DNA of 64,000 bases, taken from NCBI GenBank assembly GCA_963782495.1, contig CAWAJU010000005.1, forward strand, positions 204,260-268,259. The letters are read 5' to 3'. Within the stretch, counting starts at the first letter, position 1; each line of letters begins with the position of its first letter. Made by a program: the position numbers and the translations under genes. The notes under the pieces are model-generated. The model ran no database searches, was not told the origin of the DNA, and was given only the letters and a program-made list of their open reading frames with translations. Shown in pieces: positions 4,940 to 9,326 of the stretch. The DNA comes from an uncultured beta proteobacterium (GTDB lineage: Bacteria > Pseudomonadota > Gammaproteobacteria > Burkholderiales > Thiobacillaceae).

Positions 4940-5003
4940 GCGCAACTTCACAAACTCGACCGCCTTCCTCGCCCAACTTTCATTCCTATTGTCGGACCTG
5001 CCA
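4940..5003 (-). repeat. Decayed copy of the thiC 3'-end segment (copy C)
   Basis: CTTCACAAACTCGACCGCCTTCCTC (4946-4970) matches thiC 7426-7452 (CTTCACAAACTCGACCGACTTCACTTCC). GTCGGACCTGCC matches ATCGGACAGGCC further along. It shares the CTTCCTC 2-nt-shorter variant with copy A. Confidence 0.5.
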
Positions 5004-5052
5004 CCGTCTCCAAGGTCACGGAACTAAACTTCCGCAAGAGCGCCTATATGGC

Positions 5053-5535
5053 ATGTTCGGAAAACTTCAAAACAAGCTGCACGACTTTGTCGAAAGCTTC
5101 GCGCCCAGTCCCGAGACCCGCATGCGTCAGGAAATGGCGGCCCTCCAGCAAGCCTGTTGCCAGTTGTTGATGGAGGCGGCGCGACTCAGCGAGGCAAACA
5201 CCCAGCAGAAACGCGCCGTTGTCGCGCAGGTGATGCGGGAGCAGTTCACCATCCAGGAGGCCGATCTCACCGCGATGATGGACACCGCCGGCCGCCCGGA
5301 AAACCGGCTTACCTCCTACTACGACCAGGTGACGCAGATCAACAAGGGCTTCGGCCCCGCGCGCAAGGCGCGTTTCATCGAACAGCTCTGGCGCGTCGCC
5401 ATGGCGGACGGCAACATCGACATGTACGAGGACCAGCTGGTGCGCACGCTGGCCGAGCTGTTGTACGTCCCGCACACCGATTTCATCCTCGCCAAGAATC
5501 GGGTGCAGGCAGGCGTCGCCCCGCAGATGAATTGA
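5053..5535 (+). CDS. TerB-family (tellurite-resistance TerB-like) protein
   Basis: ORF 4849..5535 trimmed to MFGKLQNKL. About 160 aa, with the TerB-like C-terminal block FIEQLWRVAMADGNIDMYEDQLVRTLAELLYV. Confidence 0.7.
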   Translation: MFGKLQNKLHDFVESFAPSPETRMRQEMAALQQACCQLLMEAARLSEANTQQKRAVVAQVMREQFTIQEADLTAMMDTAGRPENRLTSYYDQVTQINKGFGPARKARFIEQLWRVAMADGNIDMYEDQLVRTLAELLYVPHTDFILAKNRVQAGVAPQMN

Positions 5536-5580
5536 CTTGCATCTGCTGACCGAATATTTGAGCTTTCTCAAACCTTCCGA

Positions 5581-5695
5581 TACACCTCGGCCCCCTGCTT
5601 CACAAACTCCACCGACTTCCTCCATGCCTTTCTGCAGCGCCTCTTCATCAGACAGGCCTTACTGGTCAGCGTAGTCGCGCACGTCCTGGGTAATA
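5581..5695 (-). pseudogene. thiC 3'-end remnant (copy A)
   Basis: About 85% identical by eye over about 115 nt to thiC 7408-7522. Translated in the thiC frame it gives [24 protein letters not shown], followed by a 2-nt deletion. It therefore carries both an in-frame stop and a frameshift. Confidence 0.75.
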
Positions 5696-5815
5696 TTTCA
5701 AACAACTCGAGCCCAGCTCCTTGAATTGTCAGGGCATGTCCCTATTGCGGATCGACAACCTGGTCATCCGGGATAATCTATCGGCTGATACCGCATGCTT
5801 GCCTGTGCATGGAGT

Positions 5816-7117
5816 TCAGCGTTTCATCAGATAGACCAGCCTGACGTGCGGCGGCAGGACTGCCGTTTCGGCCACGGTGATGCCGTGGACATGCTTTTTA
5901 GAGGCATAGTCGAACTCGCCGGCCGGCCATGATCCATATCTGCTCTTGTCCGTGGTATTCGGCCCGCCGCACGAAGCGCCATGGGCGTGTTTATCCTGGC
6001 CGGCCCTTACACCGACCTGTGCCAGGTCGGCGGTCCCCATCAGAAACCGGTCGCGCAGGTCCGGGGTGCCTTCTTCGCCATTGCAGATTGTCCAGCCTTC
6101 GGGCGCGATGAGGTGACGACCGCCGGTTTCGTCGAGATGGATTGCGCGCTCGGTGGGATGCCAAGCGATGATGGTTCCAGCCGGCACGCCGTAGGAGCCT
6201 TCCGGCAACGGTGGTGCCTCGTGCTGGGCCAGCAACGCCCGCGACCTGGCGAACTCGGGAGGCAGCAGATTCCAGTAGCTCCGCGCCGTCGCAGAGATGG
6301 GCGCACCAAGCATTTTCAACTCGCCGCTACGCAACAGCGCCAGTGTTTCGATAATGTCCTCCAGTCGGGTGAGCACGGCAGCGCCGGTATAAGGCTCGCC
6401 GTTGCGCCGGAAGCCGCCCGAGGTGGCCACGAATATCAGTTCCACGCTGCTGTCGGTCAAGGCAGTTTTTGCTGTCTGGTCGATCTTTCCGTCGGCACTG
6501 CCGCTGAGAAATGTGGCCCGGAACGCGGCCCTGACCTTGGTCGTCTGCTCCTGGCTCGAACCCATCACCCGTCCGCGTATTGCAAGCCGGCAGCCGTATT
6601 TGATCGCGCTCACATAGTGGGACCCGTAATCCAACAGGAACTGACGCTCGAACGAGTCCGGGCTTAATTCGCCGTCTTCGCCCCGAGGACGTCTTTCCGG
6701 GTCCCAGATCAGGCGTTCATGTCCGAGTATTTCCGTGATATCGCTGGTCCTGCCCTTGGAATCCTGCAAAGCGTAGATCGAATGCGAGTTGCTGCGCTCC
6801 TCCACCGCCTTATCCAAAGCTGCCGAGGCGCTCACAAAACCATAACTGCCCTGGAGATAGGCGGCCAGGAAGTGCGCCTCCTCGCGCGTGGAACTGGCCT
6901 CTTTCAGCTCGAAATGCTCATCTACCGTGAATTCCGATACTTCCTCCATGCCCCTCATCAATCTCGGAATTCTTAACGGGCAATCGCCTGCTCGGCGCTT
7001 CGGCGCCCCGGGATCAGACATGTCCAGCCCGTCTCCCAACCTGAGCAAGCCTTCATTGATAAAGCCCGGATTCACCTGGTATTCATCGCGGCCAATATTC
7101 GGGTTTGTGGCTGACAT
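5816..7117 (-). CDS. MACPF-like pore-forming domain protein with C-terminal phage tail-collar-like domain
   Basis: ORF 5816..7204. Start preferred at ATG 7117 (GGAGGA 4-5 nt upstream); ATG 7129 is the alternative. YGSHYVSAIKYGCRL fits the MACPF signature (Y/W)G(T/S)H(F/Y)x6G(G). The C-terminus (PEGWTICNGEEGTPDLRDRFLMG ... PPHVRLVYLMKR) resembles tail-collar/MdpB-type domains. Confidence 0.7.
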   Translation of the reverse strand: MSATNPNIGRDEYQVNPGFINEGLLRLGDGLDMSDPGAPKRRAGDCPLRIPRLMRGMEEVSEFTVDEHFELKEASSTREEAHFLAAYLQGSYGFVSASAALDKAVEERSNSHSIYALQDSKGRTSDITEILGHERLIWDPERRPRGEDGELSPDSFERQFLLDYGSHYVSAIKYGCRLAIRGRVMGSSQEQTTKVRAAFRATFLSGSADGKIDQTAKTALTDSSVELIFVATSGGFRRNGEPYTGAAVLTRLEDIIETLALLRSGELKMLGAPISATARSYWNLLPPEFARSRALLAQHEAPPLPEGSYGVPAGTIIAWHPTERAIHLDETGGRHLIAPEGWTICNGEEGTPDLRDRFLMGTADLAQVGVRAGQDKHAHGASCGGPNTTDKSRYGSWPAGEFDYASKKHVHGITVAETAVLPPHVRLVYLMKR

Positions 7118-7394
7118 GTCGTCCTCCATTTGTAAGTTGAGTCCAAGTGAACGGAATCTGCCAGGCGCCGCAGCTCGTTTTGCGCATGAATCGATATTCG
7201 GCAAATATCGACAATAATCCGTATAGCACGCGCTATTTTCCGGCCTCGCAGTGCGACTTCACCGTCTGGCTCGCCATCCCCCTCTACAGGTCCCACTTTC
7301 GCTGATGTCCTGCTTGGCAGCGAGGTCTCGCACTCCCCGGGCAGGCCCAATTTTACTTGGCGGCAACTGTGCCTCGATTGTTGTCGTGGGTACC

Positions 7395-9326
7395 TCAGAT
7401 TTTCTGGTAGACCTCCGCCCCCTGCTTCACAAACTCGACCGACTTCACTTCCATGCCCTTCTGTAATGCTTCTTCATCGGACAGGCCTTGCCGGGCCGCA
7501 TAATCGCGCACGTCCTGGGTGATCTTCATCGAGCAGAAATGCGGCCCGCACATGGAGCAGAAATGCGCCAGCTTGGCGCCGTGCTGCGGCAGGGTTTCGT
7601 CGTGGAAATCCTTCGCGGTATCCGGATCGAGCCCGAGGTTGAACTGATCTTCCCAGCGGAACTCAAACCGTGCCTTGGACAACGCGTTGTCACGGATCTG
7701 CGCGCCAGGATGCCCTTTCGCAAGATCCGCCGCGTGGGCGGCGATCTTGTAGGCGATGATGCCATCCTTCACATCCTTCTTGTTGGGCAGTCCCAGGTGC
7801 TCCTTGGGCGTGACGTAGCACAGCATGGCGGTGCCATACCAGCCGATCTGCGCCGCGCCGATGGCGCTGGTGATGTGATCATAGCCTGGCGCGATGTCAG
7901 TGGTGAGCGGCCCCAGGGTATAGAACGGCGCTTCGTCGCACCAGCCCAGTTGCAGGTCCATGTTTTCCTTGATCAGTTGCATGGGCACATGTCCAGGGCC
8001 TTCGATCATGGTCTGCACATCATGCTTCCAGGCGACCTGGGTCAGCTCACCGAGGGTGCGGAGCTCTGCCAGTTGGGCCTCGTCGTTGGCGTCGTAGATG
8101 CTGCCAGGACGCAAGCCATCGCCCAGCGAGAAGGCCACATCGTAGGCCTTCATGATTTCGCAGATCTCTTCGAATCGCGTGTAGAGGAAGCTCTCCTGGT
8201 GATGCGCGAGGCACCACTTGGCCATGATCGAGCCGCCGCGGCTGACGATGCCGGTCATCCGGTTTGCGGTCATGGGGATGTAAGGCAGGCGCACCCCGGC
8301 ATGGATGGTGAAGTAGTCCACCCCCTGCTCGGCCTGCTCGATCAAAGTGTCGCGAAACATTTCCCAGGTCAATTCCTCCGCGCGGCCGTCGACCTTTTCC
8401 AGTGCCTGATAGATCGGCACCGTGCCGATCGGCACCGGCGAATTGCGGATGATCCACTCGCGCGTTTCGTGGATGTGTTTGCCGGTGGACAGGTCCATCA
8501 CCGTGTCGCCGCCCCAGCGGATCGACCAGGTCATTTTTTCCACTTCTTCGGCTATCCCCGAACTCACCGCCGAATTGCCAATATTGGCGTTAATCTTGAC
8601 CAGGAAATTGCGCCCGATGATCATCGGCTCGGTTTCCGGGTGGTTGATGTTGGCGGGGATGATGGCGCGGCCGCGCGCGACTTCTGCGCGAACGAATTCC
8701 GGCGTGATCTCGGCAGGGATGGCTGCACCAAAGCTCTGGCCGGGATGCTGACGATTGAGCAGCTTCGCCATCTTCGAGCCGGTCGGGCCGGCGGCTTTCA
8801 ACGACTCGATGTATTCCTGACGGCGCAGGTTCTCGCGGATGGCGATGAATTCCATTTCGGGAGTGATGAGGCCACGCCTGGCATAGTGCATCTGGCTGAC
8901 ATTCATGCCCGGTTTCGCGCGGCGCGGCCTGCGCTGAAGGCCGGGGAATCGCATGGCTGCCAGGCTGGCATCCGCGGCCTGCCGGCGCCCGTATTCGGAA
9001 CTCAAGTCGGCCAGGATTTCCGTGTCGTCGCGCTCTGCAATCCATCCGGCACGCAAAGGTGACAGGCCCTGGCGAATGTCGATCCTCGCATCGGGATCGG
9101 AATACGGACCCGAGCAGTCGTAGACAAACACCGGCGGATTGGGCTCGTCACCAAAACTGGCCGGGGTGTCTGACTGGCTGATCTGGCGCATGGGCACCTG
9201 AAGGTCAGGCCGGGAACCCTGCACGTAGACCTTGCTCGAATGAGGCAATGGGTGGATCGCCGCCTCGTCCACGTGAGCGGAAGCGGCAATGAATTCAGTC
9301 GCGTGTTGGGGGATGGGTGCGTTCAT
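7395..9326 (-). CDS. thiC: Phosphomethylpyrimidine synthase
   Basis: 643 aa with strong ThiC-like sequence throughout, including the C-terminal [11 protein letters not shown] cluster motif. A TPP riboswitch lies upstream. Confidence 0.97.

Follow-up and report, generated by a model that had tools for sequence, protein, structure and literature searches.

The window (the whole 64-kb stretch of DNA analysed here) contains a thiC gene preceded by a TPP riboswitch and separated from the downstream uppP gene by a variable interval, of which uppP is the conserved anchor (Table 1). The gene order pcmt, thiC, uppP is kept in about 25 related genomes; orthologues of thiC are 85–95% identical. Between thiC and uppP lie orf125, which has no Pfam match, two cargo genes and several sequences derived from the end of thiC. 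The order copy C, TerB gene (+), copy A, MACPF-like gene (–), thiC is as described in the first-pass annotation, and the two gene assignments are backed by a PF05099 match and by the MACPF evidence given below. G+C content, which the first-pass annotation proposed to compare with the flanks, shows no anomaly across the insert.

Table 1 Features of the thiC–uppP interval (positions in the window)
Feature	Position	Strand	Description
uppP (BacA)	3490..4350	–	PF02673, 1.3e-81; downstream anchor
orf125	4400..4777	–	125 aa; directly after thiC in empty-site relatives
Whole insert	4781..7400	.	relative to empty-site relatives; alignment breaks versus L087, L088, L089
Copy D (tentative)	4838..4934	–	decayed remnant of the native thiC end, native stop and 3′ flank included; alignment to L088/L089
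Copy C	4946..4970	–	lone core with unrelated sequence on either side; local alignment, 22-mer scan
TerB cargo gene	5053..5535	+	160 aa; PF05099, 1.9e-24; antiparallel to thiC
Copy A	5568..5697	–	displaced thiC end; alignment and profile of thiC ends
Recently exchanged block	5568..7448	–	thiC end from the core on, copy B, MACPF-like gene, copy A
MACPF-like cargo gene	5816..7117	–	433 aa
Copy B	7256..7341	–	decayed displaced thiC end in the 277-nt thiC–MACPF spacer; translation VRDLAAKQDISES...
thiC	7395..9326	–	643 aa, intact, functional-looking; PF01964, 2.5e-183, and PF13667
Resident thiC end (repeat unit)	7395..7526	–	last 44 codons including stop
25-nt core in resident end	7425..7449	–	GAAGTCGGTCGAGTTTGTGAAG + 3 nt; common to resident end, copy A and copy C
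TPP riboswitch	9354..9451	–	5′ of thiC; Rfam RF00059, 65.4 bits, E = 1.2e-11

Every copy of the thiC end lies in thiC orientation, as first noted. Copy A, previously delimited at 5581–5695, extends on formal alignment to 5568–5697 and matches the thiC end at 107 of 130–132 positions (81–83%); its score of 142 compares with 16.7 ± 2.4 in shuffles, none of 2000 shuffles reaches it, and a profile built from 164 thiC ends recovers it with E = 2e-27. The homology to thiC stops exactly at the stop codon. The in-frame TAA (5659–5661) and the 2-nt deletion (near 5620/5621) read earlier in this copy are both present; copy A of L091 has the same deletion and no stop, and that of L092 has a different stop. 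Differences between copy A and the working end are distributed 3/4/16 over the three codon positions (p = 4e-4), and their concentration at third positions indicates that copy A was once a working end and diverged under purifying selection. The corresponding distribution for a displaced copy in L034 is 0/1/10 (p = 1e-4).

For copy C, proposed at 4940–5003, similarity is confined to the 25-nt core, which matches thiC at 21 of 22 positions and copy A at 23 of 25; the remainder, 4971–5003, is not similar. The core itself is statistically significant by local alignment (score 39 versus 17 ± 2.3 in shuffles), the 22-mer occurs three times in 64 kb with up to 3 mismatches (0 expected), and the CTTCCTC (GAGGAAG) variant reported as common to copies A and C is real. 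At the copy C position L091 and L092 are degenerate, with 6 of 25 positions differing, all away from the thiC consensus, so that the window copy was probably refreshed by gene conversion.

Copy B and the L094 and L005 thiC ends are ~75% identical across 87 nt, with a score of 83 versus 22 ± 3.5 against the thiC ends of other genomes and an nhmmer E of 0.009 in the profile search; the region also gave weak matches in other comparisons. Against the L088/L089 thiC end, copy D aligns with the stretch –92 to +11 (score 32.5 versus 20.3 ± 3, reached by ~1 in 500 shuffles), and its stop precedes the orf125 ATG by ~63 nt, compared with 62 nt in L088. The copy D block, ~97% conserved among the window, L091 and L092, contains the hairpin TTGCCAGT-CGA-ACTGGCAA. 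We tentatively regard this marginally significant match as a strongly decayed native thiC end. The three copies and two single-gene cassettes of the first-pass annotation are an undercount: there are four copies, probably five with copy D, and the units are composite, since the MACPF-like unit comes with an older displaced end of its own (copy B) and, in sister genomes, the TerB unit contains a further 3.8–5.2 kb of cargo. The same arrangement is found in three independent assemblies and is therefore not an assembly artefact.

The thiC–uppP interval is polymorphic among relatives, being empty in some and differently filled in others, and so does not show the invariant arrangement that the first-pass annotation named as a sign of an old local duplication. 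Four relatives from three lineages (L087, L088, L089 and L174; ThiC 90–95% identical) have an empty site, in which the 125-aa gene sits 63–82 nt after thiC and is followed by uppP. Aligned with L087, L088 and L089, the window loses similarity at 7401 and regains it at 4780. These empty sites identify 4781–7400 as inserted DNA; the ancestral arrangement is thiC–orf125–uppP. The filled layout of the window is common to two relatives, L091 and L092, with differences in filling in these two and in L173. Across Nitrosomonadales-like genomes the thiC–uppP gap ranges from 20 nt to >6 kb and holds cargo related to defence, toxin–antitoxin and restriction–modification. Larger islands follow thiC in L173 and L022, and 10 of 13 filled intervals in other genomes carry no extra thiC end. 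The site is empty in all four loci whose thiC ends in ...SGSEVYQKA and filled in all four ending in ...QGAEVYQK[IV], and the 25-nt core is absent from the empty-site genomes L087, L088 and L174 even when 4 mismatches are allowed.

The working end of thiC is itself discordant with the rest of the gene. While the gene body is 87–89% identical to both groups of relatives, the last 55 nt are 62–65% identical to empty-site L087/L088 and 96% identical to L091/L092; the control pair L087–L088 shows 87%. Judged by these identities, the working end is foreign (xenologous) relative to the empty-site relatives. Compared with L091, the window shows 72–88% identity in core genes, 95% in the spacer, 97–100% in the MACPF-like gene and 94% in copy A. 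Block 5568–7448 as a whole is ~98% identical to that of a species with ~82% identity in the flanking core genes, and it contains 22 fixed differences from L091/L092 in 1880 nt (1.2%), versus 46 in the preceding 550 nt. The fixed differences stop at a sharp edge at 7449, so that the left edge of the block coincides with the 5′ edge of the 25-nt core; at the other side homology ends at the copy A stop codon, beyond which the sequences are non-homologous. The disparity between block and core genes points to recent transfer, and on this sequence comparison at least one block (5568–7448) has moved between species recently. The block carries no recombinase.

The 433-aa cargo protein combines an N-terminal MACPF/CDC-like pore-forming domain with a C-terminal phage tail collar/tail fibre-like domain. 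The protein itself has no Pfam match, and among its homologues 6 of 30 match PF01823 and 3 of 30 match Thiol_cytolysin; its C-terminus matches tail fibre 9qgo_A (7.8e-13). An AlphaFold2 model (pLDDT 82) has TgPLP1, intermedilysin, perfringolysin and perforin as top Foldseek matches, with probability 1.0. The family is rare (32 matches). The TerB gene is 91% identical in L091/L092, where an additional 3.8–5.2 kb separates it from copy A and where IS elements and gene fragments are present.

Gallionellaceae-like and Rhodocyclaceae genomes likewise contain extra thiC ends. Such ends recur with DinD/Bro-N cargo in L022, L034 and L144 and with toxin–antitoxin-like cargo in L040; L171 carries one as well, and the viral (phage-like) contig L085 has genes for terminase and primase next to an isolated thiC end of 60 codons. 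The copies in L022 resemble one another at 91–92%, as do those in L034, versus 83–84% between the two genomes. The 5′ edges of displaced fragments fall at –124 (copy B), –132 (copy A) and –141 to –148 (Bro-N clade), placing three or four events between –124 and –148; other edges lie at –180 (L085), –401 (L040) and –495 (L171), and that of the latest exchange at –55.

The first-pass annotation saw no integrase, transposase or inverted repeats, and our searches of the window gave no integrase. Phmmer searches with E. coli IntA, XerC and IntS found no tyrosine recombinase at E ≤ 1 among all window ORFs of at least 90 aa, and across about 175 related loci the same queries matched a single chromosomal XerC, well away from thiC. 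Pfam calls on the relatives' syntenic genes gave no recombinase in the insert or ~10 kb to either side, a motif scan, which is a weaker test, gave no serine recombinase motif near thiC, and none of the about 175 loci holds an intact integrase-bearing element at thiC. The junctions show no inverted repeats, att-like symmetry or dyad. The locus matters in that incoming DNA replaces a gene end repeatedly with no integrase in sight.

There is good support for the thiC 3′ end being a recurrent insertion hotspot whose gene end is displaced serially, in agreement with the original proposal; the site-specific part of that proposal is only plausible. In the explanation we favour, and consider moderately probable as a whole, DNA has entered the last ~130 nt of thiC several times in this lineage; each entry brought a replacement gene end with cargo behind it and left the earlier end further downstream as a nonfunctional remnant. 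Outward from thiC, the stack comprises the resident end, copy B with the MACPF-like gene, copy A with TerB and, in sister genomes, more cargo, then copy C and, tentatively, copy D by orf125. Copy B lies nearer thiC yet is more decayed than copy A, so that units must arrive as ready-made composites. Recombination would prefer either a conserved 11-residue-coding stretch spanning –124 to –148, in which the start points of three or four displaced copies fall, or the 25-nt core, whose position at –55 marks the start of the latest exchange. The likeliest agent would be a site-specific recombinase encoded elsewhere, the small units behaving like integrase-less elements mobilised in trans, and homologous recombination and gene conversion between tandem ends may excise, reinsert and reshuffle them. 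Against this explanation stand the varied crossover points (–55, –180, –401, –495), the lack of a recombinase and of dyad symmetry, the absence of an extra end from most filled sites, the copy order at odds with the degree of decay and the marginal copy D.

The main rival, possible but clearly less probable, is gene-end displacement driven by homology with no dedicated recombinase. A foreign thiC 3′ part with donor downstream DNA would recombine via the conserved thiC body, and its far end would join illegitimately within or after the recipient thiC end (homology-facilitated illegitimate recombination), by the same logic as the C-terminal displacement creating Rhs and CdiA orphan tips; filled sites would spread between related species by RecA-dependent exchange or, alternatively, by Campbell-type integration of circles that had been cut out between tandem ends. 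That no recombinase was found near thiC in about 2.7 Mb of window and related loci favours this account, as do the non-uniform edges just listed and the predominance of filled intervals with no duplicated end, as would follow from a far join usually placed beyond the stop codon. At its left edge the latest exchange starts within the longest stretch of identity between ends, favoured for homologous crossover, and gene conversion has left signs in the refreshed-looking copy C and in the L022 and L034 copies, alike within each genome. However, three or four independent displaced copies begin within 24 nt in a 1.9-kb gene, which makes random joins very unlikely. The latest exchange would also need both crossovers, or one Campbell crossover, in ~55 nt of homology, and RecA is inefficient on so short a stretch. 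The lone core with unrelated flanks (copy C) resembles a recombination site more than uniform decay, and the isolated thiC end on the phage-like contig is what would be expected of an attP.

We consider it improbable that the units are decayed remnants of ordinary large integrase-bearing islands or prophages at thiC, whose integrases and most of whose content were lost by deletion and whose small units never moved themselves. Insertion of such islands is the standard principle at tRNA genes and gene 3′ ends (PMC4383910), a pSAM2-like element of Streptomyces coelicolor is documented to target thiC (PMC2440964), and both the larger islands in L173 and L022 and the IS elements and gene fragments in L091 and L092, a picture of ongoing decay, are compatible with it. 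The 1.9-kb integrase-less block argues otherwise, since the same edges and ~98% identity in two species with core genes ~82% identical indicate that it moved in its present small form, and the about 175 loci hold no intact integrase-bearing element at thiC. Local tandem duplication with neutral decay, chance similarity or misassembly would fit same-orientation direct repeats and the even G+C content, but is refuted for practical purposes by the synonymous codon-position bias, the empty-site breakpoints, the block identity and the foreign end discordant with its gene body. The different genes between copies, the shuffle statistics (0 of 2000) and the three concordant assemblies also speak against it, and it is very improbable indeed.

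Insertions at gene 3′ ends include phage 21 and e14 in icd, SGI1 in trmE, ICESt1/ICESt3 in fda and GIsul2 in guaA. Under the Islander principle, integrative islands split a conserved gene 3′ end and regenerate it (PMC4383910). The thiC locus resembles such islands in that the target gene is kept intact by a diverged replacement 3′ end that comes with the incoming DNA, a fragment of the old end persists as a direct repeat on the distal side, empty sites are found in relatives, and insertion falls just after the last highly conserved coding block. It differs in lacking an integrase, whether within the insert, elsewhere in the 64-kb window or at the thiC site of about 175 loci, in the size of its units (0.1–1.9 kb versus 10–100 kb) and in its non-uniform crossover position. 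Accretion and cis-mobilisable elements are exemplified by CIMEs beside ICESt1/ICESt3 and by tycheposon arrays with repeated partial tRNAs in Prochlorococcus; tandem SGI1 arrays have reportedly been described. As in these arrays, several units at thiC share one attachment site in a stack, with repeated partial target sequences between them, and as in integrase-less elements some are cargo-only and reshufflable. By contrast, those systems have a known cognate integrase-bearing element, whereas none is identified at thiC and mobilisation in trans is only inferred.

A pSAM2-like insertion, SCO3937, with a serine integrase, in thiC of Streptomyces coelicolor (PMC2440964) likewise makes thiC the chromosomal target of a mobile element, but that case concerns an actinomycete and a 10.4-kb element with its own integrase, and no stack of displaced ends is reported. 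Integron cassettes are similar in forming small, mostly one-gene cargo units arrayed in one orientation at one site; unlike integrons, the thiC locus has no IntI, attI or attC-type imperfect palindromes, and its repeats are pieces of a housekeeping gene. Rhs and CdiA toxins form C-terminal displacement arrays with 'orphan' tips. There, as at thiC, new 3′ ends and an adjacent gene arrive via homology to the conserved upstream part, and old 3′ ends accumulate downstream with a short piece of the conserved region. In Rhs and CdiA the tip is the payload, a toxin with its immunity gene, whereas the thiC ends are functionally equivalent and the payload is the unrelated neighbour gene.

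Many bacterial hotspots of gene gain lie between core genes without an integrase, and the route by which DNA enters them is poorly understood. The thiC locus is a readable record of such integrase-free gain, holding four or five discarded gene ends, empty sister sites and a recently moved 1.9-kb unit. A hotspot with serial displacement of the thiC gene end is well supported.

Features of the thiC-uppP interval and of thiC (window positions)
Feature	Positions	Strand	Match
orf125, native neighbour of thiC	4400-4777		
Copy D (tentative), native-type thiC end 5' of orf125	~4838-4934	thiC strand	weak alignment
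Copy C, 25-nt core	4946-4970	thiC strand	
TerB-domain gene, 160 aa	5053-5535	+	
Copy A, recurrence of the last 132 nt of thiC	5568-5697	thiC strand	107/130-132 identical
MACPF/CDC-like gene, 433 aa	5816-7117	-	
Copy B, decayed thiC end	7256-7341	thiC strand	~75% over 87 nt
thiC	7395-9326	-	PF01964, 2.5e-183
TPP riboswitch, 5' of thiC	9354-9451		

Nitrosomonadales-like genomes have pcmt, thiC, uppP as their ancestral gene order. The uppP gene follows thiC by 20-260 nt in about ten genomes and by 0.8 to more than 6 kb in about thirteen, the cargo of the filled intervals including Doc-/toxin-antitoxin-like genes, DinD/Bro-N, restriction-modification, DUF262 and McrBC; an extra thiC end is missing in 10 of the 13 filled intervals of other genomes. 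In four relatives with an empty site (L087, L088, L089 and L174; ThiC 90-95% identical to that of the window), thiC is followed 63-82 nt on by a 125-aa gene (orf125) and then by uppP. Alignment of the window with these relatives stops at 7401 and restarts at 4780, and the window segment 4781-7400 is therefore the insert. The hotspot proposed in the first-pass annotation is thus matched by a polymorphic uppP-thiC interval, unoccupied in four relatives and variously filled elsewhere. Other fillings of the same site, at 8100-15500 in L173 and 13892-16521 in L092, carry an ICMT-like methyltransferase, a Druantia DruA homologue, IS3, IS630 and IS4-like transposases and a PEP-CTERM protein, a content typical of a defence or accessory island.

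Formal alignment of copy A with the working thiC end gives a local score of 142 (16.7 +/- 2.4 in 2000 shuffles), with homology ending exactly at the stop codon. Its translation runs for 25 residues, meets a frameshift and continues for 16 residues, and both lesions reported in the first-pass annotation, an in-frame TAA (5659-5661) and a 2-nt deletion (near 5620/5621), are present. The more decayed copy that the annotation placed at 4940-5003 contracts to the core of copy C, which shares 21/22 positions with thiC and 23/25 with copy A, the remainder of that range being dissimilar; allowing up to three mismatches, the core 22-mer occurs three times in the 64 kb, with none expected. Of the three copies and two cassettes originally described, copies A and C stand, but a further decayed end, copy B, and tentatively a copy D must be added. 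Copy B sits inside the 277-nt spacer that separates the MACPF-like gene from the thiC stop, aligns with thiC ends of other genomes at a score of 83 versus 22 +/- 3.5, and is detected by nhmmer with a profile of 164 thiC ends (E = 0.009). Copy D may, tentatively, be a remnant of the native thiC end: it shows weak similarity to the native-type end found in close relatives, extending over the stop codon and first 3'-flank bases (score 32.5 versus 20.3 +/- 3), and lies ~63 nt from the orf125 start, similar to the 62 nt in relatives. All displaced ends (A, B, C and tentatively D) are in direct orientation with thiC. Directly upstream of the thiC-end repeat boundary, thiC itself contains a 17-nt direct repeat (7527-7567; CATCGAGCAGAAATGCG and CATGGAGCAGAAATGCG, 24 nt apart) encoding both HFCSM motifs of the C-terminal Cys cluster.

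At ~97% identity across L091, L092 and the window, the non-coding block 4838-4934 exceeds its neighbouring genes (70-91%), and it holds a perfect hairpin at ~4866-4890 (TTGCCAGT-CGA-ACTGGCAA). A regulatory role for the orf125-uppP unit is possible, in place of or in addition to an origin as a decayed thiC end. The stretch between orf125 and uppP contains, at 4339-4360 on the - strand, a strong terminator-like hairpin with its T-run, suggesting that uppP starts at ~4314 rather than at the listed ATG at 4350; the promoter and terminator scan was otherwise uninformative. Beyond uppP, a 2.3-kb segment (1237-3520) with a TonB-dependent receptor gene (1347-3440, +) is missing in L087, L088, L091, L092 and L174, in which uppP is directly followed by exbD. 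This segment is a second, independent insertion or deletion adjoining the thiC-uppP hotspot.

On sequence comparison, the working thiC end of the window is foreign. Compared with the empty-site loci L087 and L088, window identity falls from 87-89% in the thiC body to 73% over the last 132 nt and 62-65% over the last 55 nt, whereas L087 and L088 are 90%, 86% and 87% identical to each other over the same segments. The opposite trend is seen against L091 and L092, which are filled like the window (87%, 90% and 96%). The C-terminal type ...SGSEVYQKA accompanies an empty site in 4/4 loci and ...QGAEVYQK[IV] a filled site in 4/4, counts that come from eight close, phylogenetically non-independent loci; the C-terminal sequence type of thiC predicts occupancy of the neighbouring site. 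Conserved marker genes call for caution, since they can, like thiC, be mosaic at the 3' end. The working end and copy A differ at 3/4/16 sites over the three codon positions (p = 4e-4), and the end copies of L034, a Gallionellaceae-like locus, at 0/1/10 (p = 1e-4). This third-position excess indicates that the ends diverged within working genes and were disabled only recently. G+C over the insert shows no anomaly, so composition speaks neither for nor against foreign origin.

The gene content between the copies is as the first-pass annotation described it, a TerB-like gene on the + strand and a MACPF-like gene on the - strand. The MACPF-like protein of the window has no Pfam match itself, PF01823 included; among its homologues only 6/30 match PF01823 at E <= 0.01 (best 2.4e-7). 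The family reaches the MACPF and thiol-cytolysin models, and the C-terminus of the protein matches tail fibres. In a Foldseek search with an AlphaFold2 model (pLDDT 82), at least the top 25 matches are MACPF/CDC proteins (probability 0.99-1.0, with low TM-scores of 0.3-0.4), and the protein is accordingly assigned a predicted MACPF/CDC fold. The locus thereby brings to light a rare family, a MACPF/CDC-like and tail-collar-like fusion; it has no signal peptide and only 32 relatives (P0001-P0032) in a database of 5.8 billion proteins, scattered across unrelated taxa (Amphritea, Porticoccus, Vicinamibacterales, Desulfococcus). At comparison locus L081, the MACPF-like gene and ~100 nt upstream of it recur, 85% identical, with a radical-SAM gene on one side and selO on the other, which indicates that the cargo was captured from an ordinary chromosomal context. 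More distant copies occupy unrelated contexts, none near thiC; the gene is not tied to thiC, since its relatives sit away from it. PADLOC and NCBIfam searches of the cargo gave no useful matches, and an Rfam scan found nothing within the cassettes.

L091 and L092, two assemblies of one other species with 98% mutual identity, are both arranged as thiC, copy B, MACPF-like gene, copy A, intervening DNA, TerB, copy C/D, orf125, uppP. Identity between the window and L091 is 72-88% in upstream core genes and 78-83% in the 5' part of thiC, rises to 90-93% in its 3' part, 95% in the spacer and 97-100% in the MACPF-like gene, and declines through copy A (94%), TerB (91%) and the copy C/D region (86-87%) to orf125 (70-76%), with uppP at 83-86%. 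The block 5568-7448 is ~98% identical to L091/L092, against 72-88% for the flanking core genes. Fixed differences number 46 in the 550 nt up to 7449, zero over 7448-7401 and 22 in the 1880 nt that reach to 5568; this young block is bounded by the 5' edge of the 25-nt core on the left and the copy A stop codon on the right. No homology is found among the window, L091 and L092 beyond the copy A stop, where the window has 32 nt, L091 has 3.8 kb that include a hemerythrin gene and NhaA fragments, and L092 has 5.2 kb that include two IS elements and a PEP-CTERM gene. A sharp-edged, near-identical block in a second species argues, indirectly, that a 1.9-kb recombinase-free unit moved as is, probably passing in this form from one species to another. 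Although nearer thiC, copy B shows more decay than copy A, which implies that units arrive as ready-made composites. Gene conversion between thiC-end copies also seems evident: at all six copy C positions that have drifted in L091/L092, the window copy equals the thiC consensus, and in L022 and L034 end copies are more alike within a genome than between genomes.

The same footprint occurs elsewhere. Three loci of a Gallionellaceae-like clade (L022, L034 and L144) carry extra ends of 139-147 nt 3' of thiC, 91-92% identical to the end of their own genome, with DinD/Bro-N cargo; in L040 (Rhodocyclaceae), with a toxin-antitoxin-like pair, the fragment covers -401 to -163 plus the stretch from -72 to the stop, counted back from the thiC 3' end. 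A viral contig (L085/L086, IMGVR_UViG_3300049797_000020) that encodes small and large terminase subunits, a CHC2 primase and DUF3987 holds at 965-1141 an isolated 60-codon thiC 3' end, with an in-frame stop upstream and no thiC body. This end resembles an attP and is a candidate for one; no integrase is seen on the partial contig. A metagenome contig (L171) has an isolated 165-codon thiC fragment of a similar end type, suggesting the same host group for both. No further extra ends emerged from an nhmmer search of all loci with the thiC-end profile, and viral scans returned only the contig already known with the ThiC-end alignment and just a 50-residue partial match with the Bro-N cargo protein. 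Weak matches in L067, L077 and L035 were dismissed as chance, lying inside unrelated genes with ordinary neighbours. ThiC C-terminus matches in a 'phages' collection are uninformative: the contigs, misplaced there, are bacterial and carry a complete thiC among housekeeping genes. Separately, one metagenome contig (L160) has two complete tandem thiC copies (4515-6368 and 7747-9600) with identical C-terminal peptides, which may reflect true duplication or an artefact of assembly.

Recombinases were sought with phmmer (IntA, XerC and IntS) and by motif scans, which were negative and alone covered serine recombinases. None is present among the insert genes, none at thiC in about 175 loci, and Pfam calls on syntenic genes reveal no integrase within ~10 kb of the insert. 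Across the 64-kb window no tyrosine recombinase matches at E <= 1, in keeping with the initial observation that no integrase is visible there. No integrase-bearing element sits at thiC in the about 175 loci, the partial viral contig L085 being the sole candidate.

Of the first-pass annotation's repeated site-specific insertion, the hotspot and the end displacement hold, given the foreign end and the empty sites; its site-specific character is plausible, with no recombinase found in the loci covered and with edges that partly cluster and partly scatter. We tentatively favour as agent a recombinase that acts in trans or has since been lost, and put its chance at slightly below even. A preferred site would account for the 5' edges of three or four independent displaced copies, which cluster at -124, -132 and -141 to -148, in or just after an invariant 11-residue coding block of thiC; for copy C as a lone core with unrelated flanks; and for the latest exchange, which begins at the core and could use at most ~55 nt of homology. 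Several observations speak against a canonical integrase: the edges at -55 (the latest exchange), -180, -401 and -495 misfit a single core, no inverted repeats or dyad symmetry are seen at the junctions, and a duplicated end is absent from most filled intervals. The main rival, rather unlikely, is a purely homology-anchored displacement like that of Rhs/CdiA orphan tips, which accounts for the absence of an integrase and for variable edges, though not for their clustering. It is improbable that the thiC end is a portable attachment site for tiny recombinase-free units ("tail-swap cassettes"). Each unit would comprise a replacement gene end and one or few accessory genes (pore-forming toxin, TerB, DinD/Bro-N, toxin-antitoxin), would excise and insert by recombination between gene-end copies, driven by a trans-acting recombinase or by host recombination alone, and would so pass between species; if true, this would be a cassette system built on a housekeeping-gene end instead of attC sites. 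Local duplication followed by decay is excluded by the third-codon-position skew of the working end versus copy A, and we reject target-site duplication by a staggered cut for the window, given the non-native type of its working end.

The locus is a testable model of whether small toxin, stress and defence genes spread by trans-acting site-specific recombination or by homology-anchored end displacement. Islander-type elements enter the 3' end of a gene and regenerate the target (PMC4383910), and thiC is the target of a serine-integrase element in Streptomyces (PMC2440964), the only such case found in the literature searched, in which no proteobacterial insertion at thiC was encountered. Like Islander-type islands, the insert has brought a diverged 3' end that restores thiC, has left displaced target fragments in direct orientation at its far side, and has relatives with an unoccupied site; unlike them, it encodes no tyrosine or serine recombinase (serine by motif only). 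The MACPF-like and TerB units between thiC-end copies, with no recombinase of their own, resemble CIME accretion arrays, as does the unit mobility suggested by the near-identical block, whereas no cognate integrase-bearing element is found at thiC in the loci surveyed. Unlike integron arrays, which have an IntI integrase, an attI site and imperfectly palindromic attC sites, the locus shows no recombinase in these searches, and its repeats are direct pieces of thiC coding sequence, with no inverted repeats at the junctions. It thus combines the known themes of target-regenerating integration and accretion arrays, and is unusual for its tiny recombinase-free units, its layered record and its clean comparative evidence.
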